From: Armatimonadota bacterium
Lineage (GTDB): Bacteria > Armatimonadota > SYMT01
Direction of reading: 5' to 3'
DNA length: 64,000 bases
NCBI GenBank assembly: GCA_046292385.1
Contig: JBKBRF010000006.1
Coordinates: 128,001 to 192,000, forward strand
The stretch's first letter is position 1. Each line of letters begins with the position of its first letter. Under the pieces are notes generated by a model. It did not search any database. It had not been told where the DNA came from and saw only the letters and a program-made list of their open reading frames with translations. Shown piece after piece: positions 22,297-43,800 of the stretch. The position numbers were made by a program, and so were the translations under genes.

Positions 22297-22312
22297 ACGC
22301 GAGGAGCCACGG

Positions 22313-23143
22313 ATGGAGTATTCAGCTCAAGCTCAGGCAGCCTCCGGATATGGGACCGCGGGCATCCACGCGCCCCAGGCCTCCGGCAGGCAGCGCGCGC
22401 TCCGGCGCATCATGTTCGCCAGCCAGAAGGGCGGGGTCGGCAAGACCGCGTCGGCGGTGAACGTGGCGGCGAGCCTGGGCCTCTCCGGCTACCGCACGCT
22501 GCTGGTGGACACCGATCCGATCGGCAGCGTCGGCGCCTGCTTCGGGGCCTCGGTCGCTCCCGGGCATCCCGGCCTCTTCGGCATCGAGCAGTGGGAGCTG
22601 GCCGACCTGGTGATCCCGGAAGTCGGCACGAACCTCGACCTGCTTCCCTACGCGGAAGACCGCCGCGCCATCGACTTGAACGCGCTGCACCGCTCGCTGG
22701 TGGAGCTGGGGCGGCGCGCGGCGGGTGAATACGACTACGTGATCATCGACACGCGCCCGTCGGTGGCGGACATGACCCGGCGGCTCTGCCAGGTGGTGGA
22801 CGAGGTGGTGGTGGTGTTCCAGTGCCACCCGCTCGCCTACCGCACGCTCGGCGGTATCCTCGGGCAGCTCCGCGACGCCCGGGCCGACGGTGCCGGCGCC
22901 AACCTGCTGGGCCTGCTGCTCACGATGGTCGACCCGTCCGACCCGAACCAGGCGCAGCTCGAAACCCACATCCGCCGCAGCCTCGGCGCGGCGATGCTCC
23001 CGATCTCCATTCCCCAGGACCAGACCGTGCAGGAAGGGCTGATGGAAGACCGGCCCGCCGTGCTCTACCGGCCCGACTCGCCGTCCGCACGCGCCTATCG
23101 GCAGTTGACGGAGCACCTGGTCAGCGCGCGGACCCTGGCGTAG
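22313..23143 (+). CDS. ParA/Soj family ATPase
   Basis: SQKGGVGKT, LLVDTDP, YDYVIIDTRP, LLLTMVD, PDSPSARAYRQL. Confidence 0.92.
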   Translation: MEYSAQAQAASGYGTAGIHAPQASGRQRALRRIMFASQKGGVGKTASAVNVAASLGLSGYRTLLVDTDPIGSVGACFGASVAPGHPGLFGIEQWELADLVIPEVGTNLDLLPYAEDRRAIDLNALHRSLVELGRRAAGEYDYVIIDTRPSVADMTRRLCQVVDEVVVVFQCHPLAYRTLGGILGQLRDARADGAGANLLGLLLTMVDPSDPNQAQLETHIRRSLGAAMLPISIPQDQTVQEGLMEDRPAVLYRPDSPSARAYRQLTEHLVSARTLA

Positions 23144-23172
23144 GCCCGCGGTTTCACAACAGGTAGTAAGTG

Positions 23173-24828
23173 ATGAAAACCGTCTACTCCATAGGGATCG
23201 ACTTCGGCACCAGCAATAGCTGCGTGACGTATGCGACCTACCTCGATCGTGGCGACGGCGGCGTCGTCTCCGAGCCGCTCCACCGGCCCGAGGCGATCCC
23301 GTTCCAGCACCGCGAGACGCTGCCGACGATGCTGTTCCTGGGCGACGGCCGGGAGCAGCCGCCGCTCTTCGGCGCGCTGGCGGAGGAGAAGGCGCCGTTC
23401 TATCCGGAGCTCACCCGTTCCGGCTTCAAGCTGCGCCTGGGGCATCCCCAGCACGGCCGGGAGGCGTTCCTGCTGGCCAAGCAGTTCCTCGCCCACCTGC
23501 GGGCTCGCGCCGCGGAGGTGGTGCCGCTGGGCAAGAAAGACCCGAACGTCCGCTTCGAGACCGTGATCGGCCACCCGGTCCAATGGAGCGCGGACCAGCG
23601 CGAGGAGACCCGGCGCGCCGCCGTGGAGGCCGGCTTCCCGAACGTGCGACTGGAAGAGGAGCCGATGGCGGCGCTCTTTAGCCACCTCTGCGACGACCGC
23701 GACGGGTTCCAGCCGCGCCCCGGCAGCCGCATCCTGATGGTCGACTTGGGCGGCGGCACCACCGACTTCGCCTTCCTGCAGCTCTCGATGACGCCGGAGG
23801 AGCGCCCGGTCTCGATCCCGGTCGACCCTGCCGGCAGCGTCCCGGCGTGGGGCGACGGCCGCCGCACCTACGGCGGGCGGGACCTGGACCAGCTCCTGCT
23901 GCAGTACATGACCCGGGAGTGGGATCCGGCGATGGTGAAGCGCCACCGGCAGGCGCTGCTGCGGGAGGTCCGGCGGTTCAAGGAGGCGTTCTCCAACCGC
24001 ATGCGCGACGGCGCGCACGAGCACGAGGGCCTCTGGCTGCTGGGCGAGCAGGCGGTTTCGGTGCGCCTCACCCGCGACGAGTTCGAGACGCTCGCCGCCG
24101 AGTACATCGCCCAGTTCGAAGTGCTGCTGCGCGGCGCGCTGGAAGAGGCGCGGGTGGCACCGCGGCAGGTCGGGTACCTCGTCCTCACCGGCGGTCACTC
24201 CCGCTGGTACTTCGTCGACGAGGCGCTCCAGCGGGTCTTCCCGCATCTTTCCACCGCGAGCCGCACGATCCTGCGGCACACGAACCCGGAGCAGAGCGTG
24301 GCGCGCGGCCTGGCCTACACGCCGCTGGTGCGGAGCAATGCGTCCGGCGTGATGGCCCCGGTGCGGCGCTCCGCGCATGCCGTGTGGGTAGCGGTGCCGA
24401 ACGGGTCGCTGGCGGCGCAGGGCGCGCCGTCCGGCCAGGCGTGGGAAGAGCCGGTGCTGCTGATCCCGCGCGGGCAGCAGCTTCCGTTCCAGAGCCGCAC
24501 GCCGCTCCGCATCCGCGTGGAGCAGCTCGCCCTGGATGCCCGGGAGGCGACAGTGAACATCCGCTTCTTCAGCGGACAGCGCCGCATGCCGCTGGGCGAG
24601 CGGGTGGCGCGGTTCGAGCGGGGATTCTGGGAGCAGCTCACCAAGTCGTTCTCCCTCTGTCTCCCGTGGATGCGCAACGTGAGCGCGGACCAGTTCGAAG
24701 TGCTGGTGGCGTGCCAGGTGGATGAGAACGAGCTGATCACGGCGGAAGTGCTGGTCACCCGCTACCTGAAGGGCAAGCCCCAGGAAGTGCAGCGCCAGAA
24801 GATGCAGCTCAGCAGCGCCGCGGCGTAG
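23173..24828 (+). CDS. Atypical Hsp70 family protein
   Basis: GIDFGTSNS, EEPMAA, VDLGGGTTD, GGRDLD, LTGGHSR, PEQSVARG; C-terminus is not a canonical DnaK substrate-binding domain/lid. Confidence 0.9.
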   Translation: MKTVYSIGIDFGTSNSCVTYATYLDRGDGGVVSEPLHRPEAIPFQHRETLPTMLFLGDGREQPPLFGALAEEKAPFYPELTRSGFKLRLGHPQHGREAFLLAKQFLAHLRARAAEVVPLGKKDPNVRFETVIGHPVQWSADQREETRRAAVEAGFPNVRLEEEPMAALFSHLCDDRDGFQPRPGSRILMVDLGGGTTDFAFLQLSMTPEERPVSIPVDPAGSVPAWGDGRRTYGGRDLDQLLLQYMTREWDPAMVKRHRQALLREVRRFKEAFSNRMRDGAHEHEGLWLLGEQAVSVRLTRDEFETLAAEYIAQFEVLLRGALEEARVAPRQVGYLVLTGGHSRWYFVDEALQRVFPHLSTASRTILRHTNPEQSVARGLAYTPLVRSNASGVMAPVRRSAHAVWVAVPNGSLAAQGAPSGQAWEEPVLLIPRGQQLPFQSRTPLRIRVEQLALDAREATVNIRFFSGQRRMPLGERVARFERGFWEQLTKSFSLCLPWMRNVSADQFEVLVACQVDENELITAEVLVTRYLKGKPQEVQRQKMQLSSAAA

Positions 24829-26344: not shown

Positions 26345-26923
26345 TTAGCTGCCTTTGATCTCCAGCAGCTCCACGTCGAAGACCAGGTCCGCGTTCGGCG
26401 GAATGGGACCGCCGGGAGTACCCTGCGCGCCGTAGCCCAGGTCCGACGGGATCACGAGCTGGCGCTTCTCGCCCACCTTCATGCCTTCCACGCCAATATC
26501 CCACCCCTGGATCACCCGACCCATGCCGAGGGGGAAATCAAAGGGTTGGCCACTGTCCCGAGAGCTGTCGAACTTGGTGCCGCCCTCACGGAGCCAGCCG
26601 GTGTAGTGCATCACCACGTTGTCACCAGCCTTGGCCTCCTGGCCGCTGCCCGGCTCGATGATCGCGTAGGTGAGCCCTTCCTTCACCTGATACTTGTCCT
26701 TGTCCAGCTTCGCCCAGGGACCCTCACCCGGGATCAGCGGCTCTCCGGCGGAGGCGGTGCCGCCTTCCGGCGCGTTACCGGTTTCCGGGGTGTTGCCCGT
26801 CGCCGGCTCGCTCGCGGTGTTGCCTGCGGGCGCGTTCCCGGTGTCGGACGGCGTCTCGGCCGGAGTGCACCCCGCGGTCAGCGCGGTGAGGGTCGCCAAC
26901 ACGGCGATTGGAATCCATCGCAT
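26345..26923 (-). CDS. FKBP-type peptidyl-prolyl isomerase, lipoprotein
   Basis: Lipobox LTAGC; HYTGWL, FDSS, VIQGWD, IPPNADLVFDVEL. Confidence 0.93.
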   Translation of the reverse strand: MRWIPIAVLATLTALTAGCTPAETPSDTGNAPAGNTASEPATGNTPETGNAPEGGTASAGEPLIPGEGPWAKLDKDKYQVKEGLTYAIIEPGSGQEAKAGDNVVMHYTGWLREGGTKFDSSRDSGQPFDFPLGMGRVIQGWDIGVEGMKVGEKRQLVIPSDLGYGAQGTPGGPIPPNADLVFDVELLEIKGS

Positions 26924-26942
26924 CACGAACTCTCCTTGGTCT

Positions 26943-27758
26943 CTACTTGCCAACACCGAGCAGCTCCACCTCGAAGACGAGGGTGGAGCCCGCCGGGATC
27001 GGGCCGATCGCCCGGTCGCCGTAAGCAAGGTCCGCGGGGATCACGAGCTGGCGCTTCTCACCGACCTTCATGCCGGCCACGCCTTCATCCCAGCCCTTGA
27101 TCACTTCCCCGCCGCCGAGCGTGAACGCAAACGGCTGCTCCCGGTCGACGGAGCTGTCGAACTTCGTGCCATTGGTGAGCCAGCCGGTGTAGTGGACCTC
27201 CACCCGGTCACCCTTCTTGGCGGCGCTCCCCTTGCCGGGTGTCATGATGGCGTACTTCAGGCCGCTCTTGGTCTTCGTGAACGCTTTCTCTTCCAGCTTC
27301 TGGGGCTTGGTGGGGGTCTCCACCACGTTGCCCAGCTTCACCAGCTCGATCTCGAAGATCAAGGTGGCGTTGCCGGGGATCGGTCCGCCCGGGGTGCCGC
27401 GCTCGCCATAGGCCAGCTTCGGCGGGATCGTGAGCTGGCGCTGCTCGCCCACCTGCATCCCGGTGATTCCCTCTTCGAAGCCGGGGATCACCATCTGCCG
27501 GCCGAGCCGGAACTCGATCGGCTCATTCCGGTCCCGGGAGGAATCGAACTTCTTCCCGTCGGTCAGCCAGCCGGTGTAGTGGACGAACACCTGCTGCCCG
27601 CTCCGGGCGGCGTCGCCCTTGCCCGGCTTCAGCACGGCGTATTTCAGGCCGCTCTCGGTGGTCTTGACCTTCTCCGGGTCGACCTTCGCCGGCTCGCTCC
27701 AGGCGGCGGTCGCCAGGGAGAGCGCCGCCAGCAGCGGCAGGCTCGCGCGTAGTGACAT
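26943..27758 (-). CDS. Tandem two-domain FKBP-type PPIase, exported
   Basis: Signal peptide; two HYTGWL..FDSS..LxFExEL domains. Confidence 0.93.
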
Positions 27759-27966
27759 GTCTAACTCCCTACTCCTCGTCGGCTCCGCCCCGCCGTCCTC
27801 TGCCTGGACGCTCCGAGCTGCGGATGCGTTAGAGAAAGATACGTGGGGCGGGGCGCCGCGTCTCTCAAAAAGAATGGGGCTCCCCTGTAAGATTACAAGG
27901 GCGGGGCCACTGCACGCGTCAGCCGGCCCGGCGCCCGCCCGTTCGAGCGAGAGAGGAGCAGCGCAA

Positions 27967-28929
27967 ATGAAGGCGATCCGAGTCCACGAGCCGGGCGCGC
28001 CGGAAGTGATGAAGCTGGAGGAGCTACCGGATCCGCAGCCGGGAGCCGGAGAGGTCCTGGTGCGCGTCCGCGCCGCCGGCGTGAATCCCGTAGACACCTA
28101 CATCCGCACCGGCACCTACGCCATCAAGCCGCCGCTCCCGTACACGCCCGGCATCGACGGTGCCGGCACCGTGGAGCAGGTGGGGGAGGGGGTAGAGCGT
28201 TTCCGTCCGGGAGACCGCGTCTACGTCTCCGGCGCGCTCACCGGCACCTACGCGGAGCTGGCGGTCTGCGCGGAGCGGGACGTCCACCCGCTGCCGGACA
28301 ACACCTCGTTCGCCGCGGGCGCGGGCCTGAACGTGCCGTACGCCACCGCCTACCGGGCTCTGTTCCAGCGGGCTCACGCCGCGGCGGGGGAGACGCTGCT
28401 GGTCCACGGCGCCAGCGGCGGAGTCGGCATCGCGGCGGTCCAGTTCGCCCGGGCCCACGGCATGACGGTGGTCGGCACCGCCGGCTCCGACCGCGGACGG
28501 GAGCTGGTGCTGGCGCAGGGCGCCCACCACGCGCTCGACCACCACGCCCCGGACTACCTGGAGCAGGCGCTGGCGCTGACCGGCGGCCGGGGCTTCGACG
28601 TGATCCTGGAGATGCTGGCGAACGTGAACCTGGGCAAAGACCTCCAGGTGCTGGCGCCCGGGGGCCGGGTCGCGGTGATCGGCTCTCGCGGGACCGTGGA
28701 AGTGAACCCGCGCGACGTCATGGCCCGCGAAGCAGCGGTGTTGGGGGTGCTGCTCTTCGGCGCCACCGACCGGGAGCGCACGGGGCTGCACGCGGCGATC
28801 TATGCGGGGCTGGAGAACGGCACCCTGTGCCCCGTGGTCGGCGAAGAGATCCCGCTGGCGGAGGCGCCCCGCGCCCACCAGGCGGTGATGGAGCCGGGAG
28901 CGTACGGAAAAGTAGTGCTGGTCCCCTGA
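27967..28929 (+). CDS. NADPH:quinone reductase (zeta-crystallin/MDR family)
   Basis: [32 protein letters not shown]. Confidence 0.93.
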
Positions 28930-29024
28930 GCCAGCGCAGCACCGCAACCCGGGGCGCGCCAGCACGTTGCTAGATAGACTAGGCTTACATCGGATTGACT
29001 TCTGATCACTCGTCAAGCTTTCCC

Positions 29025-29613
29025 GTAGTCGTTCATCTACCCGCCTGGGTGTATGAGGCTGGGCGCGGGCTGACCGTGGGCAGCCGCTTCGCAGGTACGG
29101 ATGAGATAATCCCAGACTTGGCGGCGGTGGAGCCGGAGTGTGGCGACGACGGTGAGGATCCGCTCCACGAACTGCGCTCCTACCTCCGACTGGTGGCCAA
29201 AGCTCCCTTTGCGCCATAGTACCGCGGCTCGCAGGCGGGTGGCGCGACGACGACCACCTGGTCTACGGCCTCGATAGGCAGGAACTCGCGGAACTTGCCG
29301 GAGTGGCCGGACTGCCCGCCCCACTTCTTGCCGGAAGGCGGTTTGGAGGGGCGCTGGCGCCAGGGCGGATCGCTGGATGGTGGGCGCGAGGAGTTGCGGG
29401 AGTTCCGGTACTGCGCTTCGGTGAGTGCCCGGACTTGCTCCTGGAGGGGGAGCACGACCGCGTGGAGGTCTCGCACCATCTGCTGGAGCGTAGGGATATC
29501 CGTCGGCACGTCGTCGGTGACCGGCTCGGGGGAGACCGGCTCGTGAGGAGGCTGGCTCACACTCCAATAGAATCACATCTCCGCCCCAGCGAGTCATCCC
29601 GGTGAATGATTAC
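29025..29613 (-). mobile_element. Internally deleted IS66-family element (transposase pseudogene)
   Basis: N-terminal NSRNSSRPPSSD...GGQSGHSG joined out of frame to C-terminal LRAAVLWRKGSFG..S..GA.FVERILTVVATLR; imperfect TIRs gtagtcgttca / tgaatgattac; no TSD seen. Confidence 0.85.
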
Positions 29614-30644
29614 TCCTCATCTATCTAAACTCCACTTGAGACGATAAGCGTTTTGATACGCCGCTCGCTGGCAATCGCAACCCGACAGCTGGTCCATCCA
29701 GCCGCGAGGCCAATGCGGATGCGGCCGACCCAACACCGAGAGCAGACGATGATTGCTTGCTTCATTCAGTGGTGGACGCCCGGCACCTCCGAACGCGCGC
29801 TCATTGATGACCTCCGCTAGCAGCAGGAACCCCGGAAGCGCCGAGAGGAAGGAGATACTCACCACGTCGCCTTCCGGCTCCGGCTCGAGACGTAGCTCAG
29901 AGCAAATCTCAACTCTATCTCCATCACCTAGCAGCCTCCCAGCAACGGAGCGTTCTCCGGAGCAAGCACGCCACCCGCCTCCAGCAGTCCCGTGGACAGG
30001 GTGCTCCCGAGCGCTGGAACTCCAACACCGCGGCGATAGAGCCGAGACGGGCGGAACTTCCTCGCGGGGCTGCGGGCTCTTCAGTCTCGCTCATCGGCTC
30101 GGCGTCGAGCCGGAGATCCGCAACAAGTGGCCGGTGAGTTACTCGCTAAGCCCATCCGCCAGAGGAAGCGCCCCCTCGCTCTTCATTCACGGGAACGTGT
30201 TAGCCGACAGGCGCTCGGAGCGCCTATCATCGCTGGCTCCGAGATCCCGTACTGATTAGCTTGGTGTCAGAACCAGGAAGGCCGGCGGTTCCTCGGGTCG
30301 CACCGAGGAACGCACCCATGCCAACCAGCCTCAATCGCCGCACCCGAGAGCCCAGCAGCCAAGGCTCACGGCGATAGCCACTAGCGTCGAAAGGAAACGG
30401 TGCCCAGGAAAACAAAAACTGGCGCGTGACATGCAAGGATTGCAGAGGTCTATTGCACTCGCATCCCGAAATGGGTTCTGGTGGGCATCCTAGTCGGTGC
30501 CTCGAGCGCCAACGCAGGTGTTGGCAGCGTTGATGCCCAGTCGACCCGCCGGTGAGGCTCAACCGATCCCGACGCTACCTTGTGCTCTAGTAGGAAGCTT
30601 CATTGCGCCGGCCGCCGGCTCACGTACGAAGAAGGGAGAACAAC

Positions 30645-31868
30645 GTGCGTCACGGCTCGATAGCATTCTCGTTGTGGCTAACTGCCACCTTTGCCGCAAC
30701 GCTTACTCGCGCTGGTGCGGACCCGTCCCTCCCCTTGACTGAAGCTGTCGCCCAAGCCAAGGCGCGGAACCCAGTGGCTGCGGCCGCACGCGCCGAGGCC
30801 CGAGCCGCGCGCCGCGGCTTAATAGTTGCCAGGTCCTACCCAGCAGCTCACCTCATCTATGCTCCTGCGATCACCAAAGGTGGCGCACTGGAAGAGTTAC
30901 GAATCAGCCAACCACTTGAGTTCGGGAGGACGCGAGCGTCGCGTATAGGTGTCGCTCGCGCCCATGTGGCGGAGGAAGAAGCAACCGCCATCACAGAGAT
31001 ATCTGCACTGGTTTACGACGCGAAAAGCGCATACTTCGCCCTCGGGGAATCCCGAGCTCTTGCCCAGGCACATGCTTCAGCCATCGAGGCTACCACGGGT
31101 TTTCTTGAGACCGCCCGCAAGCGCGTTCTTTCCGGCGTGGCGCGCCCCGAGGACGAGGCTCTCCTCCAGATGTACCTCGAAGATTTGCGCATGAGCGCCG
31201 AGGAATACGCTATGAGCAGTAGGAATGCGGCAGTTTGGCTCAACACTCTAATGGCACGATCCCCTCAGGACCCAATAGGCGATCTGGAGCCGCTTTCGGT
31301 TGTGCCGATGTCCATGACGCAGGAAGAGGTGATCGCCAAGGCGCTCCATCAAAGCAGTTCACTGAGAGTGGATGCAGCGCGGCGCTCCAGCTTCGAGCAG
31401 CAAGCCAAGCAAGCAAGTAGTCTCGATGACCTCAAGGTAGCATTGCATTACCGTGCGGAAGAGGTCACGCGTGACATTCGCGAACAAGGATTCGGCGTTA
31501 CGTTCGTATTGCCGCTTGGCAGTCAGAAAGGCACACGTGCCGCGGCTGACCAGAAAAGAGCGCTTGCGTTGTCGCAGCAGCATAGGGAAACAGCGACGGA
31601 AAACGCTATTCGGAACGACGTGATCACGATCATGGGCGAACTCGCGCTCCTTGAGCAGTCCCTATCAGAGCACAAAGCCCGTATCGCATCTCGACAGCAC
31701 ATACTCCAGACACTCACGCGAGACTTTGAGACGGGTTCCGGTTCTGCACCCGCACTCATTGAAGCACACAGAGCATATCTGAAAGCCAGCAACGACGCCA
31801 TCCGGTTCCGGGCAAGACATGCTCGTGCCAAGGCCCTGCTCGATCGAGCCATGTCCGAGACCGATTGA
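30645..31868 (+). CDS. TolC family outer membrane efflux protein (divergent)
   Basis: Signal peptide, LTEAVAQAKARNP, ISQPLEF, AKSAYF, duplicated helical repeat, FETGSGS; GTG with AGGGAG RBS. Confidence 0.8.
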   Translation: MRHGSIAFSLWLTATFAATLTRAGADPSLPLTEAVAQAKARNPVAAAARAEARAARRGLIVARSYPAAHLIYAPAITKGGALEELRISQPLEFGRTRASRIGVARAHVAEEEATAITEISALVYDAKSAYFALGESRALAQAHASAIEATTGFLETARKRVLSGVARPEDEALLQMYLEDLRMSAEEYAMSSRNAAVWLNTLMARSPQDPIGDLEPLSVVPMSMTQEEVIAKALHQSSSLRVDAARRSSFEQQAKQASSLDDLKVALHYRAEEVTRDIREQGFGVTFVLPLGSQKGTRAAADQKRALALSQQHRETATENAIRNDVITIMGELALLEQSLSEHKARIASRQHILQTLTRDFETGSGSAPALIEAHRAYLKASNDAIRFRARHARAKALLDRAMSETD

Positions 31869-32794
31869 CGAAAACAACCCGGTTTAGTGTCGTGTCAGGG
31901 AAGCAAATCAACATGGGCACGGAAGTTACCAAAGTATACACTGGAGCGGTCGAGTTCAACAGCTGGGCACGTGACCACACCGTGCTTATGTATTCTGACG
32001 ATCCGACCCAACTTCTTGACGTTGCACTTTCCTTCTATTCACTTCCCTCGACCCATCCATTGACCCCGAGTCAAGCATTAATCGGTGGTGAGGACTTCAG
32101 GGTTTATGCAAACAACCTCGATGTCACGACTGCCGTCCTTGCCGAGTTGCAGGACATGGTCAAAGCAGCGGATAAATCTCGTCTCCGCTCAGAGTACCTT
32201 CAGGGTGCACGCTCATACATCCGGTACTTGCAAGCACTGGGCACCCATGTGCAACAGACAGCTGGGGATCAGGCTTTCGCAGAAACCCTCGCTATGACCT
32301 CAGATTGGCCCGTGCACTTCTCACGTCTGGGAGACAGAACGTATGGATGGAGTGGCAATCTCCACCCATTTTCTTTCCTATATCGCACCATACAGATTCC
32401 GCCCATCCTCTTATCAAAAGTATGGGTGCGCTACCGATCGGCAAACCCGATGCCACTTCCTCAAACGCTCGCCGAACTGCCACTTCGAAGTATTAGCTTC
32501 TCTTGTGGCCCGGCACCTTCGTTTGAACACTTCGACCCTAGCACGTTCAACCCCGGTGGCGTACTTGTCTATGCGCTGGAGGCCGCGTACGTTAACCCAT
32601 TGGAGGAACCGCTACAGGACATCCTGAGGCAACTCGATCAACTAGCACGTGGGTTGGAGACAGTGAGAACCGAGTACTTGGAGGTGGCTCTCACCTCGAT
32701 AGAACAAATCGAGCGCGATCTAAAGGCGCTTCAATCATCCACAGTGACTCGGCTGGAGCAATTAACGCAGGCCGTGGAGCATATTGCTCCGTAA
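31865..32794 (+). CDS. Hypothetical protein with C-terminal coiled coil
   Basis: 309-aa ORF coupled to the TolC stop (TTGA); alternative ATG at 31913. Confidence 0.7.
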   Translation: MTKTTRFSVVSGKQINMGTEVTKVYTGAVEFNSWARDHTVLMYSDDPTQLLDVALSFYSLPSTHPLTPSQALIGGEDFRVYANNLDVTTAVLAELQDMVKAADKSRLRSEYLQGARSYIRYLQALGTHVQQTAGDQAFAETLAMTSDWPVHFSRLGDRTYGWSGNLHPFSFLYRTIQIPPILLSKVWVRYRSANPMPLPQTLAELPLRSISFSCGPAPSFEHFDPSTFNPGGVLVYALEAAYVNPLEEPLQDILRQLDQLARGLETVRTEYLEVALTSIEQIERDLKALQSSTVTRLEQLTQAVEHIAP

Positions 32795-32808
32795 CAGGGA
32801 CGCCATCG

Positions 32809-34044
32809 GTGCAACTCGGAAACTATCCAGACGACCCAACACCAGGCACTCTGGTGACGATAAAGAAGAGGATTGACGATGCAGTAAGCAGTGTGCTCCG
32901 CCTCACGGAATCGTCGACGAAGCTTGCGGCCAGTTCAAACCGAGTTGCCACGCAGTTCTTAGATCCAAATTCGCTCCAGGGGAGATTCTGGGGGCAATCG
33001 GCAAGGTTCTCAGTGGCGGTAGCAGAGCGAACACAAGATGTCGAACTGGCCATCCAAGAACGGCGGCTCAATGCGCTAATCGGAAGCACAACTCTCCATC
33101 CGATCTCGATCACTCAAGGTGATGTAACTGCGCACATAAGACCGTTGAGAAGTCCGACCGTGATTTGGACGGGTTTGGGTGTTCCACGCGCCTTGGCTGA
33201 TTGCCTGTTCATACGCACCGAGTGGCGTGTCACTGTATCGGGTAGTGCGCCCAGAGATGTGAGCATCCTTCACTCGGTCATGCTCAACCTCCCTAATGAG
33301 CAGCGTCAGATCACATTGGCGGAGACTAACGCCCCCCGGTACTTGGACTCCAGTGGCGAAATCATCGATCCCTTTGCATCCGTACCTCGGAAGAATAGCA
33401 CCCGAAGTTCACTTAAGAAGCAAACCTTTGATGGAATCACGAGGGAACTACGAAGAATACGCACGACGCTTCCCGCTCTCCCGCGGCTACCAGCTAACTT
33501 CCGCCCGCATCTCTTTCACCGAGATTATAACCTGGTTTTCGTGGGCAGAACTCTTCCGAAGCGCCGGCAGCGATTCCCGCTTTGGGTTGGGCCTATCTTT
33601 CATAATCAAGGCATTCGCCTGAAGAAGGAGCACCTTGTGCCGGAGATACGGAACGGAATCGAGACGCAGGGCGTAAGGCTCCAGGAAATCACTTTTAGCT
33701 ATGGTTTTATTGGCCTGAAGGTGCATAGGCATGATCGCTACCGCTTCTTATGGGTAACCATAGACACGGACGTGTGGCTAACGTTTGAGTTAAGGTTTCC
33801 ACAGGTTGCGCCAGCACTGCTCCGCAGCAGGGCGCAGCAAGTGGCTTACCATTGGAAGTATGAACTAAAGAACTGCTGGCCGATATGCGACGAAGTCGGG
33901 GAGTATGTTCAGGGGCGAATTGAATCCGAGATCAGGAGACACCGCGTCTTGACATTCCCTTTCCAAGATTTGCGTAGTTCCGCTACGGAAGCTCAAGCAG
34001 GAGTCACCCCGTACGGGGTTGCAATCACGATGGAGGTTCGCTGA
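32809..34044 (+). CDS. Hypothetical protein (411 aa)
   Basis: Long ORF in lower-GC DNA, AGGGA RBS, 14 nt after the previous stop. Confidence 0.75.
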   Translation: MQLGNYPDDPTPGTLVTIKKRIDDAVSSVLRLTESSTKLAASSNRVATQFLDPNSLQGRFWGQSARFSVAVAERTQDVELAIQERRLNALIGSTTLHPISITQGDVTAHIRPLRSPTVIWTGLGVPRALADCLFIRTEWRVTVSGSAPRDVSILHSVMLNLPNEQRQITLAETNAPRYLDSSGEIIDPFASVPRKNSTRSSLKKQTFDGITRELRRIRTTLPALPRLPANFRPHLFHRDYNLVFVGRTLPKRRQRFPLWVGPIFHNQGIRLKKEHLVPEIRNGIETQGVRLQEITFSYGFIGLKVHRHDRYRFLWVTIDTDVWLTFELRFPQVAPALLRSRAQQVAYHWKYELKNCWPICDEVGEYVQGRIESEIRRHRVLTFPFQDLRSSATEAQAGVTPYGVAITMEVR

Positions 34045-34045
34045 C

Positions 34046-34858
34046 ATGGCTGACACTTTTATTTGGCGAATGGACGGCACTGCTCATAAGTCGTCAGTCG
34101 ATCGCCTGCGACAGGAGATTATACACGCCCACACTTCCCAGACCCCCTTGGCCATCTCCATAATCCTTAACGCCCTGCCAGTAGAGTCTCCGCAGAGTGG
34201 CGCTGCTGTAAAGAGAGGTGCGTTCAAGATCACGGGGAAGCAGTTCGAGAACGTCGGTAGCAAGGAGTTGCGGATGCAGTTCAGCGACCCAGCACTAAAA
34301 GATTTCACCGTTACCATACCGAAGCGGATTAGTGGTGCAATCGACAGCACAACCCCTGCTCTCCGTATCAGCTTTGACAGTTTGCTCTTAGCGGACATAC
34401 CTCGGCTGGCCGAGTTAGGGATCAATAGGTCTCGGTTTCAGCGAGTAACGGGTTTCGAGTTGTCTGCCGCTACATCGGTAACCTTTCTCGCCGACGATCT
34501 TAATCCAGACAGGTTAACATGGATTGACGTTGCGCTGACAGATGCGGCCCACCGAGCATCCACGGCGGCGACCCTAATGGAGTTGGCGATGATGGCCCCG
34601 CAGCTCGCGCGGTGTCCCGAGGTCGGGGAGGTAATGCCTGTTGCATTGAGAGCGGATGATCCGTGCTGTGGTGATGAGGAAGAGAAGATATGGTACGTCG
34701 GGCGCCGTCACGGCACCGAAGGGCAGCGCCTTTGCGAGATTGCGTGCCATAAATTCATCGTTGGCGGGCAGGTGGCGTACGACAATGTTTGGGGCCCCGA
34801 CACCAAGAAAGGCTGCAATGACTATGAGGCCTTGAACTGTCCAGGCGGGCTGTGTTGA
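34046..34858 (+). CDS. Hypothetical protein with Cys-rich C-terminal domain
   Basis: GGAGG RBS; 8 Cys in the last ~82 aa, ends in Cys. Confidence 0.75.
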   Translation: MADTFIWRMDGTAHKSSVDRLRQEIIHAHTSQTPLAISIILNALPVESPQSGAAVKRGAFKITGKQFENVGSKELRMQFSDPALKDFTVTIPKRISGAIDSTTPALRISFDSLLLADIPRLAELGINRSRFQRVTGFELSAATSVTFLADDLNPDRLTWIDVALTDAAHRASTAATLMELAMMAPQLARCPEVGEVMPVALRADDPCCGDEEEKIWYVGRRHGTEGQRLCEIACHKFIVGGQVAYDNVWGPDTKKGCNDYEALNCPGGLC

Positions 34859-34907
34859 GCTTCTAGAGGTCGCACAACTGGTCCTGCAATGTCGGTGAAT
34901 TGATGAA

Positions 34908-35609
34908 ATGAAGCCACCGCTTTCGTTCGTATACCGGTTAGGTTTCCATTGGCAGCTACGTGTCGCTCGGTGGGCTCCCCCCGCCCTAGGGGCTGTTTCC
35001 GGTAGCTTGGTAGGTTATGGAGGCAGCGGTGGGCAGGTGCTTAGCTGGATCGCCGTATACGCGTTCGCCGCTTGGGGTGTGGGGTTCGCTTTGGGGTCCA
35101 GATGGAGAACTCTGCGGAAACTAGTACGGGGGCCAATACGCGGAGAGCCATCTTGGACAGGGGGTGCACTCGCAGCGCTTGGTGGCACCGCCATCACGTT
35201 GTGGCTCTCGCATTCAAGAATATCTTATCTAGTTTTTTTCCTAGCAGGAGTCGCGCTGAACATCGCTTACCTTGGCGCGAAGGTGCGGTGCAAAGTTTTT
35301 CGCTGCTGTGAACCGTCTCGACGACCCGTTACCAACGTTGGAAAGGTCTTCGCTGAGTCCCTCCAGGATCTCGAATTTGCTTTGAGCCTCGCCGTTGTTA
35401 CAGTGGCGTTGCTCCTATGCGACGGGGGCGTACAGCGCTACGAGTTGCCAACTCCTTATCTGGGTCACGCAGCGATTCGCTTTATGGATTGGCAGTTGCG
35501 TTTGCCACTTCGCGGATGGTGCCGCAATGCTCTGGATATCGGGACCGGAGGGTTTGCCATCATAGGGGTTGCCGGAGCGTTGTTACTTGATCGCGCATCT
35601 GGTAAGTAG
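34908..35609 (+). CDS. Membrane protein, divergent Lgt (prolipoprotein diacylglyceryl transferase)-like
   Basis: Multi-TM; PSWTGG, AKVRCKVFRCC, SLQDLE and YLGHAAIRFMDWQLR occur in the order of Lgt motifs. Confidence 0.55.
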   Translation: MKPPLSFVYRLGFHWQLRVARWAPPALGAVSGSLVGYGGSGGQVLSWIAVYAFAAWGVGFALGSRWRTLRKLVRGPIRGEPSWTGGALAALGGTAITLWLSHSRISYLVFFLAGVALNIAYLGAKVRCKVFRCCEPSRRPVTNVGKVFAESLQDLEFALSLAVVTVALLLCDGGVQRYELPTPYLGHAAIRFMDWQLRLPLRGWCRNALDIGTGGFAIIGVAGALLLDRASGK

Positions 35610-35659
35610 CGCGCAGGTTCAGGCAGCGAGGGGTCGCCGGGCGAGCCCTGGCTTCCGCC

Positions 35660-36082
35660 GGGGCCGATAGTGCTGCAACCGGTCTAGGCTCCAGCAGCCA
35701 AACGGCAGCCCGAAGGCCTGCGGATCGGTCAGGGCCGTGGCGATCACTCCCGCCACTCGCTCCGGCGTGTAGGTCGGAGGCATCCCGACCGCGGTTTCTC
35801 CTGCAGCCCCACCAGCCCGCGGGTATTGAACTGCTTGAGGCAGTGCCGCACCCGCGGTTCGGAGCGCCCCACGCGCCACGCCACCGCTGGCACCCGCTCC
35901 CCTTGGACCAGTTGCCAGATCAGCTGCGCCCGCTCGACCCCGCGGGCTGATGCCGTGCAGGGATGGGCGAGTGCGCGCACCTGCTCCCGCTCTTCTGTTG
36001 TTAGATCCTTTACTCGTAGCGCCACCCCCGGATCTTAGCCGATCGGCAGGATTCTGTTCAGCACTTCCCGGATGCACCACTA
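35660..36082 (-). mobile_element. IS630-family transposase remnant (frameshifted HTH region only)
   Basis: LTTEEREQVRAL...RAQLI...FNTRGLVGLQEKPRSG then frameshift to PPTYTPE...GLPFGCWSLDRL; TAGTGGTGCATCC end at 36082; no DDE domain. Confidence 0.8.
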
Positions 36083-36122
36083 AGGTAGGGAGTTAGATGA
36101 TGAGCAACGAGAGGAGCCGCCC

Positions 36123-36740
36123 ATGAGCCAGTATCCCGGACCGCCGCCGCCCGCCGAGCCCCAGCGGCGGGGAACCCCCGGGTGGGTGTGGGCGCTCGCC
36201 GGCTGCGGCGGCTGCGCCGTCGTGGCGCTGATCGTGGTAGTAGTGGCTTCCGTCTTCATCACCCGCACGGTGCAGCAGGCGTTCGACACCGGGCCGGTGG
36301 ACCGTGCTTCGATTCAGCAGGCATTCGGGTCCGACGTGCCGCTCTACCCCGGCAGCACGGTAGACGAGGATGCCACCCGGATCATTCGCGGATCGCTGAA
36401 GCTGGTTGGCAGCCTGGCCGGATCCGAGTTGGAAGCGGCGAGCCTGCAGACGTCCGACGCTCCGGAGGAAATCTACGCCTTCTACGACGAGCGCCTTCCG
36501 AAGCTCGGCTGGAAGCGGCTGGAGCAGGCCCCGGCGGCGGATCAGGACACGCGGGTCTACGAGAAGGGCGAGCTGCAGATCCACCTCACGGTGACGCAAG
36601 ACGAGAACAACCCGGCGTCTACCCAGATCCTGATGATGCGGGGCCCGGCGAAGCTGCTGAAGGACGTGGGGAGCAGCGACACTCCGCCGGAAGGGAACCC
36701 GGAAGAGGAAGCACCCTCCGCGAACGCGCCGGGGACGTAG
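36123..36740 (+). CDS. Hypothetical membrane-anchored protein
   Basis: WVWALAGCGGC TM segment followed by VPLYPGS soluble domain. Confidence 0.75.
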   Translation: MSQYPGPPPPAEPQRRGTPGWVWALAGCGGCAVVALIVVVVASVFITRTVQQAFDTGPVDRASIQQAFGSDVPLYPGSTVDEDATRIIRGSLKLVGSLAGSELEAASLQTSDAPEEIYAFYDERLPKLGWKRLEQAPAADQDTRVYEKGELQIHLTVTQDENNPASTQILMMRGPAKLLKDVGSSDTPPEGNPEEEAPSANAPGT

Positions 36741-36748
36741 CCGGAGGT

Positions 36749-36795
36749 CGCCGGAACGGGAGGGAGGCCAGTCCGATCTCCCTCCCGTTCCGGCG
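36749..36795. terminator. Hairpin between convergent genes
   Basis: cgccggaacgggagggag / ctccctcccgttccggcg 18-bp inverted repeat; no U-tract. Confidence 0.5.
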
Positions 36796-36808
36796 CGGTC
36801 CGACGCGA

Positions 36809-37276
36809 TCACATCGCGCGCGACCGCGGGGAGGGCTCCGAGATCTCCTCGACCGCTTCGGCCAGCTCGTCTTCGAGCGCTTCGTTACCGGCGGACGCGC
36901 GCGCCAGGTCGGCCTGGGCTACGATGCCGATCACGGTGCAGTTCTGATCCACGATCGGGATGCGGCGCACCTGATAGCTCGCCATCAGCCGGACGCACTC
37001 GTCGATCGAGGCTTCCGGTCCCAGGCTCGCGACATCCTCGGACATCGCTTGGCCGACGGTCGCCTGCTGCGGGTCGATCCGCTGCGCGACGATGCGACAG
37101 ACGATGTCTCGATCGGTGATGATGCCGGTCAGCCGCCGGTTCTGCTCGTTATCGACCACGGGGATCGCCCCGCAGTCCTCCTCCCTCATGATGCGCGCCG
37201 CCTCGACGATCGGCGTCTGAGCGGTGCAGCAGGTGGGGTCCGGGGTCATCAGGTCACGCATGGTCTGGCCTGGCAT
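36809..37276 (-). CDS. CBS domain protein
   Basis: DLMTPDP, GAIPVVD, GIITDRDI, VRRIPIVD. Confidence 0.92.
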   Translation of the reverse strand: MPGQTMRDLMTPDPTCCTAQTPIVEAARIMREEDCGAIPVVDNEQNRRLTGIITDRDIVCRIVAQRIDPQQATVGQAMSEDVASLGPEASIDECVRLMASYQVRRIPIVDQNCTVIGIVAQADLARASAGNEALEDELAEAVEEISEPSPRSRAM

Positions 37277-37397
37277 GGCTACTCCTCGCCGTTCGGGGAT
37301 GCAGGCGGACGGAATCCCGCCGTACACGCGTGCGATACCCCCGGCCGGAGCGGCGCAAACTCAAAGGTCACTGCGCTTTGCACCCCCGCAGCCCGGG

Positions 37398-37880
37398 TCA
37401 GTGCAGCGCTGCTTCCAGCCTATCGAGCGCCTGTTCGAGCGGGACTACCTCTTCCTCTTCCAGGCTCCCGTCGTCGAGCAGCTCCTTCACCGGTGCCGCC
37501 GCCGTGACCCACTCCATAAAGCCGGGCGGCGCCTGCCGGACCCGCTCGCGCATCCGCCGGAGCTGCTCTGCCAGGCGCTGGCGGACGGGCGGCGGCACCC
37601 TGGACCGCTCCACTACCTGCTGGTAATCGTTGAGGTCGCTCGCGATCCCGAGCTTCACGAAGCTTCCCCACCCGAAGTAGATGGCGAGGACGGCGATCGA
37701 GAATAGACCTGCGATGATCGCGAGAATCATCCCGTAGATCCGGCGCGGGGTAGGACGGCGCGGAACTCCGGGGCTCGCGTCGCCGGAGCCGGATCCGTGC
37801 GCCGGTGACACACTGCGCGCCACCCGGACCGAGTCGGTCGGCCGGGGCGGAGGCGGGGATGACGAGGGTGGCTGCTGCAT
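37398..37880 (-). CDS. Hypothetical membrane protein
   Basis: Pro-rich N-terminus, one TM, helical C-terminus. Confidence 0.6.
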   Translation of the reverse strand: MQQPPSSSPPPPRPTDSVRVARSVSPAHGSGSGDASPGVPRRPTPRRIYGMILAIIAGLFSIAVLAIYFGWGSFVKLGIASDLNDYQQVVERSRVPPPVRQRLAEQLRRMRERVRQAPPGFMEWVTAAAPVKELLDDGSLEEEEVVPLEQALDRLEAALH

Positions 37881-37986
37881 ACGAGGCTCCGAGTCCTCGT
37901 TCGCCGGACCAGCCCGCCTTCCTGCGGCACCGCGTAGAATGCCCTTGAGGCCGCCAGCCGTGCCGCGGCCTCAAGTGAGGAACGCC

Positions 37987-38475
37987 ATGTCACTCCCCAG
38001 GCAGATACTCGGGTTCGTCGGCTGGGTGGTCGTCAGCTTCGCTGCGGCGGCGACGGGGGGCATCGCCTCGACGCGCGCTCCGTCGTTCTACGCACAGCTC
38101 GCTCGTCCGGAGTGGGCGCCGCCGGCCTGGCTCTTCGGCCCCGTCTGGAGCGTCCTCTACCTGCTGATGGGCATCGCAGCGTGGCTCGTCTGGCGGGAGG
38201 GCGGCTTCCGCCGGCAAGCTGCCCCGCTCTCGCTCTACCTGGCCCAGCTGGTCGCCAACGCGCTTTGGACCTGGCTCTTCTTCGCCTGGCGGCAGGGAGC
38301 GCTCGCGTTTGCCGAGATCGTCCTGCTCTGGCTGCTCATCGCCGCGACCGCGGCCATGTTCTGGCGGGCAAGCAAGCCGGCCGCCCTGCTGCTCCTTCCG
38401 TACCTCGCGTGGGTCACCTATGCGGCGGCGCTCAGCTACACGCTCTGGCAGCGCAACCCCGGCGTCCTGGGCTAA
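37987..38475 (+). CDS. tspO: TspO/MBR family tryptophan-rich sensory protein
   Basis: PEWAPPAWLFGPVWSVLY, NALWTWLFF, PYLAWVTYA. Confidence 0.93.
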   Translation: MSLPRQILGFVGWVVVSFAAAATGGIASTRAPSFYAQLARPEWAPPAWLFGPVWSVLYLLMGIAAWLVWREGGFRRQAAPLSLYLAQLVANALWTWLFFAWRQGALAFAEIVLLWLLIAATAAMFWRASKPAALLLLPYLAWVTYAAALSYTLWQRNPGVLG

Positions 38476-40881: not shown

Positions 40882-43800
40882 TTACCGTCCCATCCGCTCA
40901 CGGAGCCAGTCCACGGCGGGGCCGAGGGGGCCGAGGTTGGGACGGAGGCGCTCCCGGTAGAAGCGCTCCATCTGGTCGCCGAAGGAGGGCGGGGCGTCGC
41001 CGGGTTTCGGGAGGATGCTGTCGATGATCTCCCGGGCGACCGGCGCGCAGATCGTCCCGCCCGTGCCACCGGAGCGGACGTCTTCCACCAGCACCGCAAA
41101 GGCGAGGGTGCGCGGCTGCAGCTCGTGGTCGCTGGTGGCGAAGCCGACGAACCAGGCGTGTCTCCCGGTGACGGTCCGGCTGCGGCCGCGGCTATCCCGG
41201 ACCTTCTTGTCGAACTCCGCCGTACCGGTCTTGCCGCCGACGGTGATCCCCGGGAGACGCGGCGCGCCGCCACGGAAGAAGGCGGCGTGCGCGGTGCCGG
41301 AGGGGCTCTCGACGACCGACACCATCATCTCGCGCAGGCGCTCCGCTACCTCGCGGGGGAACGGCTGGTAGGGCCGGCTGATCGGAGCGCCGGGGACCCC
41401 GTCCGCGGGGCGGCGGCCGTCCTTGGTCACCACCGCCTGCACCCAGTGCGGACGAGCGGCGGCGGAGTCCGAGAAGCCGGGGCGGGCGGCGCCCGCGGCG
41501 CCGGCGAGCATCGCCATCTCGAGCGGGCTAACTCGCGCGTCGATCTGCCCGAAGCCGGTGTACGGCAGGTGCTCCGCCAGCTCCTCCGGAGAGGGGAGGT
41601 GCTGCAGCTCCGCGTTCTCCATCGCCCGGTGGATGCGCTCGGGGCCAAGCCGCGCCGCCAGGTGGGCGAAGAAGACGTTGCAGGAGGTGGTGAGCGCGTA
41701 CTCCATGCTGTCGGCCAGGCCCAGGCTGCCGTGACTACCCCGGCCGTAGTCGGCGATCTTGCCGACGTCTCGCCGCCAACGCTTGCCCTCGTACTCCCAG
41801 GTCACCGGCTCCGCATTCCGGCCGTTGCGGCAGGTGACGGTGCCCTCAATCCCCTCATCCATTCCCGCGCCGGCGGTCAGGATCTTAAAGGCGGAGCCGG
41901 GGAAGTAGAGCGCGTCGCGGGAGAGCGCCTTGTTGGTGAGGATGCCGTTGCGCGGGTGCTGATCCGCGTACCGCTCCATGCGCTCGACGGTGAGCTCGTT
42001 CGGGTTGAAGGTCGGGAGCGTCACCGCGGCGAGGACGGCCCCGCTGGTGACGTCGTAGACCACGGCCGCGCCGCCGGTCCCCGGCTGGCTGCCCCAGCTC
42101 TTCACGGCGGAAGAGAGCTTCTCCGCGGCGAGCTCCTGCAGGTCGGCGCGCACGGTGAGCTGCAGGTCCTGCGGCTGCGGCGGGCGCACGACCGGGTTGT
42201 TCCGGTTCCGGAAGTACCACGGCAGCTCGTCCGGCTGGTAGCCGCGCAGCAGCGGGTCGGCGGAGGTCTCCACGCTGGCGGACTGCGCCTGGAAGCGGCC
42301 GTCGGTGGTCCAGCCGACCAACTGCGCCATGGTGTCGCCCAGCGGGTAGTAGCGCTTGCCTTCGCCGCCCTGGCGCTCCGAGCGCTCCACGCGGCGCGCG
42401 AACGCGGGCGACTCGTCCCGGATCGCGGCCAGGTCGTCTTCGTTCGGATTGGAGACGGCGAGCAGCTTCGCGTCGGCGCTGAAGACGCGCCCCCGGGGGA
42501 ACTGGCGCCGGTACCGCTCCAGGTACGGGTTCTGGAAGACGACCTTCTCCCGCGCCCGCCCGATGCTCTGCGCCGGCTGCAGCAGGATGCGATCTCCCAG
42601 GATCCAGGGACAGCCGTACAGGATCAGCCCGATCGCCGGCAGCGCGAAGGAGAAGGTGATCGGCCGGGAGAGCCGCGTGATGCCGCGAAGCACCTCCGGA
42701 GTCGCCTCGGTCGCGTCCGGGACGTGCCGGGTGGGGCGAGAGAGGTTCCAGATCGTCCCCAGCGCCAGGGCGGAGGCGATGAAGTTGGTCAGACCGGTGC
42801 TGATGAACGGAACGTTGATCCCGGTGAACGGGAAGACCCGGACCATCGCCCCGCAGATCCAGACCGCCTGGAACGCCAGGAGGCTGGTGAGACAGAACGC
42901 CAGCAGGCGGGTGCGGTCGGTCGGCGCGCGCCGCGCCGCCAGCATTCCCCGCCAGGTGAGCGCGGCGAAGAGCCCCAGCAGCGCGAGGCCGGTCCAGAGA
43001 CCCATCGTCGCCGCTACGCCCGCGAAGGCGGCGTCGTTCCGCGCCAGCGGGAGGTAGGTGGGCAGGTTCTGCGTGCCGACCCCCATGCCGGTCCAGCCGC
43101 CGGAGGCGATCGCCCAGAGAATACGCGCCTGGTGGTCGCCATTCGGGAAATCGGTCACCCACGGGCTCCACCACATCTCCATCCGGTTCCGCAGCGTGTG
43201 GAACGCCAGGTTCTTCCAGGTGGGGATCGCAATCACCAGCGCGAAGCCGGCGCCGAGCAGCAGCGGCGTCAGGAGGCGACCGGTCGCCGCGTAGAGCGCG
43301 GAGAGGGTGAGGACGATGATGACGGCAGCCGGGCCGAAGTCGCGGAAGGCGTAGAAGAAGAGGCAGTAGAGCAGCACCGTGGCGAGCACCACCACCAGCT
43401 CGGTCCGCCGCTCCATCTGCAGCCGGTTCAGAGGCCAGAACCCGGCCAGCGGCTCCCGGAGGCTCCGGAGAACGCGGCTGTTGCGGCCGAGGTAATCGGC
43501 CAGGAAGAAGGCGACTGCCAGCCGGATCAGCTCGCTCGGGGTGAAGCGGATGCCGCCCGGAAGCTGCACCTGGATGAGGGCGCCGTTCTCCGCGCGGACG
43601 CCGCCGATCAATAGCAGGAGCGCGAGCAACGCCATCCCGCCGAGCAGGAGCGCGTGGAACGGGATCGACTCGTAGTAGGGCCGGTCGCCCGCCAGCCGCC
43701 ACCAGACCTTCTCCTCCAGCAGCACGCTGAGCCGCCGGAAGTACTTTCCGCCCGCGGTCACCAGCGCCAGGACCGCGATCCCGGTCAACGCGCTGCGGAT

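Follow-up and report, generated by a model that had tools for sequence, protein, structure and literature searches.

Proteins of the tubular lipid-binding (TULIP) fold class are built of domains in which a long helix is wrapped by a strongly curved antiparallel sheet, and double TULIPs carry two such domains in tandem. In BPI, LBP, and CETP, lipopolysaccharide, phospholipid, or neutral lipid is bound in the tube. Few bacterial TULIPs have been characterized (YceB, P47/OrfX, and recently TipA), and roles in lipid traffic and toxin delivery are just emerging. Lipid binding by P47/OrfX is reported in sections of two papers (PMC7020563, PMC13030710), and in those of the former the orfX-p47 clusters appear as small and hopping between taxa, Gram-negative bacteria included. 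TipA, a Bdellovibrio double TULIP, is opened by the operon-encoded adaptor TipB according to parts of a preprint, in which the legend of figure EV2 refers to structural homologues to which helical or beta-rich domains are fused (bioRxiv 10.1101/2025.09.09.675085). Both the TULIP fold class and the occurrence of TULIP proteins in mobile clusters are, in short, already known. Here, we examine a 64,000-nucleotide stretch of DNA from an Armatimonadota bacterium (contig JBKBRF010000006.1; hereafter, the window) and describe in it a block of five open reading frames (ORF1 to ORF5) and two transposase remnants. The block is a mobile insertion that an uncultured diderm bacterium acquired recently, and ORF3 is, by its predicted model, a double-TULIP protein of the BPI/LBP/CETP/P47 architecture. 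We tentatively read the block as a mobile, undescribed lipid-binding module built on ORF2 and ORF3.

ORF3 is a predicted double-TULIP protein

ORF3 was modeled with AlphaFold2 from a 30-sequence alignment, with a mean predicted local distance difference test (pLDDT) score of 90.9 and a predicted template modeling (pTM) score of 0.81. In this model, a helical hairpin (residues 11-75) precedes two TULIP domains (residues ~77-247 and 273-411), each with a helix lying in a sheet. When the model was compared with the Protein Data Bank (PDB) by Foldseek, the matches were C. botulinum P47 (E-value 2e-8), LBP (4.4e-8), OrfX2 (1.3e-7), BPI (1.6e-7), OrfX3 (4.9e-7), and CETP (1.1e-6); chains of these six proteins spanned E-values of 2e-8 to 2e-5, and noise followed beyond that range. 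VIA-align, which is independent of Foldseek and was run on 48,161 representative chains with unrelated rows at about Z 5, placed P47 at Z 16.1 (305 residues aligned, root mean square deviation 5.1), followed by CETP (14.8), BPI (13.8-14.0), OrfX3 (13.2-13.3), LBP (12.8), and OrfX2 (10.8). YceB aligned with the N-terminal domain of ORF3 alone (about residues 74/77-247; Z 9.8-10.5). A second look with VIA-align returned the same order, and the top 13 rows were all TULIPs (12 double TULIPs plus YceB; Z 8.0-16.1). Based on the confident model and the matches by both methods, ORF3 is assigned as a double-TULIP protein, and the predicted fold points to lipid binding. The first-pass annotation of this DNA had named Foldseek as a check and had not foreseen this fold; its view of the genes as apparently undescribed stands at the sequence level, with no match for ORF2 to ORF5 in Pfam, NCBIfam, PADLOC, or PHROGs, and does not extend to the ORF3 fold, which is a known one. 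A fold search of BFVD gave no credible viral match.

The predicted structure was then compared with each described system. The P47 entries (PDB 6ekt and 5wix) were the best structural matches to ORF3 (Z 16.1 and 15.7, ~305 residues aligned, 7-8% identity), and clostridial P47 is also alike in its two TULIP domains and its length (411 versus 409-419 aa). ORF3 is unlike P47/OrfX in having an extra N-terminal helical hairpin and no match to the Pfam family Clostridium_P47 (PF06597). With BPI/LBP/CETP the architecture is likewise shared (Z 12.8-14.8, 303-319 residues aligned, 8-9% identity); however, these proteins are secreted with signal peptides and have no helical hairpin, whereas the ORF3 family is without a signal peptide. 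Since CETP and BPI score nearly as high as P47, the fold does not single out P47. The single or pseudo-dimeric TULIPs YceB/DUF1439 and DUF4403, the former aligning with the ORF3 N-terminal domain and the latter being a weak language-model neighbor of ORF3 (score 0.86), are periplasmic lipoproteins or exported (PMC6791001), in contrast to ORF3, which has no lipobox, signal peptide, or Pfam match. TipA-TipB, as presented in parts of the preprint cited above, pairs a bacterial double TULIP with the gene of a small binding partner and provides a precedent for an operon-encoded adaptor; TipA, from the same source, is a longer protein (at least ~570 residues) and carries a signal peptide, which the ORF3 family lacks, and it was not among the PDB matches listed for ORF3.

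These likenesses raise the alternative of an OrfX/P47-like toxin-helper cassette, in which ORF3, alone or together with ORF2, would act as a non-toxic helper, ORF4 as the released toxic or binding part, and ORF5 as a means of self-protection or release. We regard this reading as unlikely. To our knowledge, P47/OrfX proteins likewise are without signal peptides, which together with the top structural rank and equal length of P47 speaks for a cassette of this type, as does the mobility of the island. In addition, orfX-p47 clusters of Gram-negative bacteria are described, in sections of PMC7020563, as lacking orfX1 and adjoining toxin genes. The sequence comparisons, however, argue against it. 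PF06597 was matched neither by ORF3 (E-value ≤ 0.1) nor by any of 30 aligned family members (E-value ≤ 0.01), by which Pfam P47 membership of ORF3 was rejected; the family was also not found in the host genome, with control genomes likewise without a match. An ORF3 profile found no P47, OrfX, or BPI chain among the PDB sequences at an E-value ≤ 1, and CETP and BPI score nearly equal to P47. Furthermore, OrfX2, OrfX3, and P47 are paralogues (sections of PMC7020563), whereas no paralogy of ORF2 or ORF4 with ORF3 could be detected, and instead of a toxin or NTNH gene the neighbors here include a TolC-like gene and a membrane protein gene. Scans of the block with Pfam, NCBIfam, PADLOC, and PHROGs detected no NTNH or RHS domain and no toxin domain of any other kind; the earlier suggestion of a multi-component toxin system may nevertheless hold.

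The ORF3 family is sparse and has no signal peptides

Relatives of ORF3 were sought by an exhaustive HMMER search of 1.84 billion cluster representatives. This search returned 44 proteins at an E-value ≤ 0.001, 34 at ≤ 1e-10, and 15 at ≤ 1e-30, counts that include the query and a probably spurious match to a repetitive protein of 650 aa. Most members are 389-419 aa in length. By word-based protein search, ORF3 found itself alone, as did ORF4. Nearly all of the 30 proteins looked up in cluster tables (29 ORF3 relatives and P0003, a relative of ORF2) were metagenome singletons, and those with names were all "hypothetical protein," from metagenome-assembled genomes (MAGs) labeled Candidatus Thiodiazotropha, uncultured Hoeflea, Pseudomonadota, and Burkholderiaceae. 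Four have NCBI records (MEW8047657.1, WP_339758110.1, MEM6410164.1, and MDO8770865.1), and no literature mention of these four accessions was found. The relative P0022 lies on a contig of 2.45 Mb. In a quick tree, ORF3 grouped with P0005, P0006, and P0009 (SH-aLRT 97) among very long branches (median 1.12 changes per column). The family would widen the picture of bacterial TULIPs: it is detected by fold only and is scattered thinly over MAGs of Pseudomonadota and one hot-spring bacterium.

Alignment of 30 full-length members identified four invariant columns (D77, P193, C356, and C360), with the cysteines in a C356-x3-C360 arrangement within a conserved C-W-P-x-C-G stretch. The N-termini of all 30 were not hydrophobic (maximal 15-residue Kyte-Doolittle value of 1.55 over the first 50 residues) and instead formed an acidic amphipathic helix; signal peptides were judged here by hydropathy, with no dedicated predictor. 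The hydropathy scans were likewise consistent with the earlier observation that the three middle proteins (ORF2 to ORF4) have no signal peptides. ORF3 had no Pfam match. What appears to be new is a double-TULIP sequence family with a helical hairpin and without a signal peptide, with the proviso that supplementary files might list further orfX-like clusters.

Searches of other collections were negative. Against PDB sequences, (i) ORF3, (ii) its profile, (iii) ORF1, (iv) ORF4, and (v) an ORF2 profile gave coiled-coil or chance matches only. No plasmid was matched by ORF3 or P0048 in tblastn; a back-translated motif scan of viral contigs yielded 15 loci, none of which encodes a member of the ORF3 family according to hmmsearch; and no locus of ORF2/ORF3 relatives was confirmed in scans of metagenome contigs (A1, P0003) or genome contigs (A1, P0022). 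One family member, P0020 (582 aa), carries about 160 extra C-terminal residues that look beta-rich, have no Pfam match, and are unlike ORF2 and ORF4. The extension is reminiscent of double TULIPs fused to beta-sandwich domains, which are mentioned in parts of the TipA preprint (bioRxiv 10.1101/2025.09.09.675085).

ORF2 is the probable partner of ORF3

A word-based search of 5.8 billion clustered proteins found a single relative of ORF2, P0003, which is 293 aa in length and 47% identical over the full length. The start of P0003 and the database gene call place the ORF2 start at ATG 31913 and not at 31865, making this gene more likely to encode 293 aa than the 309 aa first annotated. An ORF2 profile found no PDB match. 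P0003 and P0006, the latter an ORF3-like protein of 411 aa with 36% identity, each come from a JGI contig 3,061 bp long; since that length accommodates both genes (882 and 1,236 bp), the two were taken as neighbors. By this analogy, ORF2 is the probable partner of ORF3, and an apparently dedicated partner of this kind would be a second new feature. ORF2 and ORF3 are counted as real genes given the full-length relative of ORF2 and the size of the ORF3 family.

The block is a recent insertion of foreign DNA

The features of the block are compiled in Table 1. Its limits were determined by aligning Logan contigs of four metagenome runs to positions 27000-38000 of the window, among them a hot-spring run (X1), which is probably the origin of the host assembly (G000), and a soil run (X2). 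Both junctions were bridged by an X1 contig of 10,817 bp at a depth of 63, with 0 differences over 27000-37275. A second X1 contig (853 bp, depth 4.1) represents the empty site: it aligned with 28714-28922 at 83.7% identity and with 36099-36406 at 82.5% identity, with 116 unrelated letters in place of the 7,176 bases of the block. This contig indicates a related low-abundance strain or species that is without the whole of 28923-36098, and in which an oxidoreductase gene (end at 28929) nearly adjoins the gene that starts at 36123. The limits of 28950-36082 given in the first-pass annotation fall within ~30 bp of those of the insertion. In the soil run, a contig of 242 bp at a depth of 2.3 was identical to 33821-34062, across the ORF3/ORF4 junction; it could be carry-over or the same organism, and is too small to name a second habitat.

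Table 1 Features of the inserted block (positions in the window)
Feature	Position	Strand	Description
Foreign inserted block	28923..36098	.	7,176 bp; five genes and two transposase remnants; empty-site and bridging contigs in X1
IS66-family transposase remnant	29037..29597	-	N-terminal part (DUF6444) in one frame, extreme C-terminus in another; no DDE core
Gene-free stretch	29598..30644	.	~1 kb; intermediate GC of 0.61-0.63; no Pfam, Rfam, or codon signal
ORF1	30645..31868	+	Divergent TolC-like outer-membrane factor; Pfam OEP; 407 aa from GTG 30645
ORF2	31913..32794	+	293 aa; isoelectric point (pI) 5.1; ~60-residue C-terminal helix, coiled-coil-like; single relative P0003
ORF3	32809..34044	+	411 aa; pI 10.2; helical hairpin and two predicted TULIP domains; no signal peptide
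ORF4	34046..34858	+	270-aa orphan; pI 5.7; 8 Cys in last 81 residues; GGAGG before ATG
ORF5	34908..35609	+	233-aa basic orphan membrane protein; four or more strong hydrophobic segments; no Lgt match
Transposase N-terminal helix-turn-helix (HTH) remnant	35622..36034	-	Frameshifted; DDE domain missing; presumably IS630 type

The composition of the block also sets it apart from the host. Its guanine-plus-cytosine (GC) content of 0.558 compares with a genome mean of 0.690 (standard deviation 0.021), a z-score of -6.2 when the 7.04-Mb assembly is divided into 6,641 overlapping 5-kb windows, only 5 of which are as low or lower. In 500-bp windows, GC fell from 0.66-0.74 in the flanks to 0.52-0.58 within 31000-35500. 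The five genes have a GC of 0.53-0.59 and a third-position GC (GC3) of 0.56-0.63, compared with a GC3 of 0.80-0.96 for native genes of the window. The drop in GC reported at first reading was thus borne out at the scales of the 500-bp window, the codon, and the genome.

The block genes were also searched for in 400 genomes of the host phylum besides G000. The ORF3 profile had five weak partial matches only, all to its helical N-terminal positions 3-137 and two of them with in-frame stops; the ORF2 profile and ORF4 had 0 matches; and ORF5 had one match of 69 residues (E-value 1.4e-4), interrupted in frame by a stop codon. In a set of 40 closer relatives, one 80-residue match to ORF3 (E-value 0.005) was obtained. 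Such weak partial matches aside, ORF2 to ORF5 appear, by sequence, in G000 alone among the 401 genomes. Horizontal acquisition, as proposed in the first-pass annotation, is strongly supported by (i) the empty site in a related strain, (ii) the composition, and (iii) the absence of ORF2 to ORF5 from the 400 phylum genomes. The block is therefore a well-delimited recent insertion, the empty site of which is visible in its own community, and an ORF3 family member on a sharply delimited mobile block beside an orphaned TolC-like gene is a third new feature.

Remnants of transposase genes lie at both sides of the five genes. On the left, the frame at 29037-29597(-) matched NCBIfam transpos_IS66 at profile positions 337-385 of 387 alone (E-value 1.6e-9, far under the cut-off), and a second frame, 29180-29560(-), matched DUF6444 (1.8e-10); no DDE domain was present, and the IS66 remnant first annotated there was confirmed. 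At the DNA level, 29025-29235 shares 82% identity with C15:35309-35518, which lies inside an intact IS66 transposase gene (DDE_Tnp_IS66, 2e-31). On the right, 35747-36034(-) matched HTH_29 (9.7e-9), HTH_23, HTH_28, and HTH_32, followed by a frameshift and a stop at ~35622. The annotation of a transposase remnant holds here for a frameshifted HTH part, and its N-terminus is what we take to be of the IS630 type. No convincing terminal inverted repeats or target duplication emerged from a repeat search of the block. Intact IS66/IS630 elements were ruled out, as just end fragments and HTH parts are left, with no complete DDE gene and no convincing repeats. Between the left remnant and ORF1, positions 29598-30644 may be decayed cargo or a leader region: none of 8 ORFs had a Pfam match, Rfam gave no match at an E-value ≤ 1, and no frame was favored by the codon model. 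Rfam, promoter, and terminator scans gave nothing above chance.

Five genes in close order

The five genes are co-directional with intact frames and gaps of 1-49 bp, and Shine-Dalgarno (SD)-like motifs lie upstream of GTG 30645, ATG 31913, GTG 32809, and ATG 34046. The tight same-strand packing described at first reading was confirmed; that the genes form one operon is what their spacing and strand suggest. A codon model trained on ORF1 to ORF3 preferred the annotated frames of ORF4 and ORF5 among the six. In Pfam, NCBIfam, PADLOC, and PHROGs, ORF2 to ORF5 had no match, except for a sub-cut-off PID match of ORF5, and tblastn found no second genomic copy of any of the five genes at an E-value of 1e-3.

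This gene order bears on another alternative, that the block is a mosaic of unrelated passengers in which insertion sequence activity joined a torn-off TolC gene to foreign ORF2 to ORF5, with no cooperation among them and possibly idle. The five intact same-strand frames with their short gaps and SD-like motifs, the similar GC3 in all five genes, and the ORF2-ORF3 pair that seems to recur elsewhere argue against a chance assembly of this sort. On the other hand, both transposase genes are decayed with no clean terminal repeats or target duplication, about 1 kb (29598-30644) holds no recognizable gene, ORF4 and ORF5 are orphans, and the GC of ORF1 (0.59) is slightly above that of ORF2 and ORF3 (0.53-0.54). 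With the gene order around ORF1 (see below) added to the latter set, we consider a mosaic somewhat unlikely.

ORF1 is a TolC-like protein without its usual neighbor

ORF1 matched Pfam OEP (PF02321, 1.7e-16) in two stretches, in accordance with its annotation as TolC. GGGAG lies upstream of GTG 30645, and an alternative start at TTG 30603 would give 421 aa. Like the OEP factors of tripartite systems, ORF1 has an OEP match with two repeats and an N-terminus that resembles a signal peptide; it differs from them in its strong divergence and in missing a downstream gene for a membrane-fusion protein (MFP). No PDB sequence was matched at an E-value of 0.01 and no plasmid by tblastn. Within its own genome, no paralogue was detected by tblastn at 1e-3, and a more sensitive search gave a 27% match on contig C2. 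Matches to ORF1 were present in 89 of 300 other phylum genomes at an E-value ≤ 1e-5, with an identity of at most 33%. In all five of the best loci (L029-L033), a HlyD-family MFP gene (HlyD_D23, 3e-8 to 4e-37) lies directly downstream of the TolC-like gene, a position that is occupied by ORF2 in the window. The missing MFP gene, found after each of the five closest homologues examined, is the further point in favor of a mosaic.

The same evidence speaks to an operon of a conventional type, whether for type I secretion, tripartite efflux, or Lgt-type lipoprotein modification, in favor of which the TolC-like gene and a multi-pass membrane protein, ORF5, might be cited. As first annotated and as confirmed by Pfam and NCBIfam, the block has no ATP-binding cassette (ABC), resistance-nodulation-division (RND), or MFP partner, and no major facilitator superfamily (MFS) domain was found in it either. 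With 233 aa and no ATPase domain, ORF5 falls short of the size of an ABC or RND pump. It also had no Lgt or other family match in Pfam or NCBIfam at an E-value ≤ 0.1, apart from a spurious PID match (0.031) below the cut-off. A conventional operon is thus extremely improbable. A classical type I secretion/efflux operon was rejected because the MFP and pump that would accompany the OEP factor are absent from the block, and the Lgt identity of ORF5 was rejected for want of a family match. The first-pass annotation had called ORF5 Lgt-like and proposed export and lipid modification: the latter claim rested on a likeness that ORF5 does not show, and the former retains the TolC gene and lacks the membrane-fusion partner.

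ORF4 is a cysteine-rich orphan

The ATG of ORF4 (34046) is one base past the ORF3 stop codon. Its size of 270 aa and its richness in cysteine were as annotated, with all 8 Cys within residues 190-270; the 411-aa size of ORF3 was likewise confirmed. The clustering of the 8 Cys in the last 81 residues is suggestive of a disulfide-rich domain outside the cell and, together with the invariant Cys pair of the ORF3 family, which fits an exported protein, would suit the toxin-helper cassette considered above. ORF4, however, is without any relative in the word-based search or the 400 phylum genomes, which counts against its being the toxic part of such a cassette.

Proposed role of the ORF2-ORF3 module

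The reading that we tentatively prefer is that of a mobile lipid-binding module. In this proposal, the ORF2-ORF3 gene pair would be the working core of the block. The tube of the ORF3 model would hold a lipid or other large hydrophobic molecule, by analogy with BPI, LBP, CETP, and P47, which hold lipid or hydrophobic ligands. Acidic ORF2 would dock on basic ORF3, perhaps through contact of the ORF2 C-terminal helix with the ORF3 hairpin, and the target of the module would be the cell envelope or the membrane of another cell. Cys-rich ORF4 and the membrane protein ORF5 could serve as cargo or anchor, and TolC-like ORF1 could be the exit channel or a mere passenger. The missing signal peptides are the main puzzle, with either cytoplasmic work or a non-classical exit as the answer; the invariant Cys pair and the Cys-rich tail of ORF4 lean weakly to an oxidizing, extracytoplasmic destination.

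Several points weigh against this proposal. As none of the 30 ORF3 family members has a signal peptide, the family may be cytoplasmic, and an envelope role would then need non-classical export. A common fold does not establish a common function. The pairing may not be general, with one relative of ORF2 (from a word-based search) compared with 43 of ORF3, and P0003 and P0006 are placed on a shared contig by its equal size of 3,061 bp. Comparison of the ORF3 profile by hhalign gave a probability of 0.8% for ORF2, through coiled-coil likeness alone, and 0.15% for ORF4, which is no sign of kinship. No fold could be assigned to (i) ORF2, with a poor Atlas model (pLDDT 0.39); (ii) ORF4, with a single-sequence AlphaFold2 model that failed (pLDDT 32.6); or (iii) ORF5. 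Lastly, we know of no standalone mode for a TolC without an MFP or an ABC/RND partner.

A bolder form of the proposal is highly unlikely. In it, ORF3 and its 43 relatives would constitute a Sec-independent class of double TULIPs with a docking hairpin, which together with ORF2, the Cys-rich protein, and the membrane protein would form a mobile lipid-extraction or membrane-attack system that exits through its own TolC-like channel without an MFP or ABC partner. If true, such a system would be a horizontally traded bacterial counterpart of BPI. The genes would also offer a compact system of ~5 kb for expression and testing.

Other loci of the window and genome

Two further low-GC loci were observed in the host genome. 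The first, L034 (G000:C15:33900-46400), includes a low-GC island with genes at L034:7451-12353 (1-kb windows of 0.52-0.58), ~6 kb from the intact IS66 transposase gene mentioned above (DDE_Tnp_IS66, 2e-31). A gene for a GNAT-like protein is flanked there by two radical-SAM genes, whose products measure 730 and 612 aa; the 612-aa protein also contains a B12-binding domain. The second, L035 (G000:C14:64700-69200), has the lowest GC of any 5-kb stretch in the genome (0.53). It resembles a foreign cassette for conflict or defense, with genes for a DNA methylase, an ORC-CDC6-like protein (3.7e-120), and a PRTase-CE protein (3.6e-53).

In the window itself, positions 21187-24828 (+) contain two tandem genes for ParA/MinD-type ATPases and, after them, one for a 552-aa protein in which an Hsp70-like ATPase domain is partial. 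At 26345-28097 (-), two frames overlap, both encoding FKBP-type isomerase domains (two in one of the frames). Many contigs of other organisms piled up at 27040-27600 in all runs, marking a conserved or repeated stretch. On the other side of the block, a 1,113-aa frame at 40882-44223 (-) fuses an FtsW/RodA/SpoVE domain (1.6e-36) with a penicillin-binding transpeptidase domain (4.7e-32).

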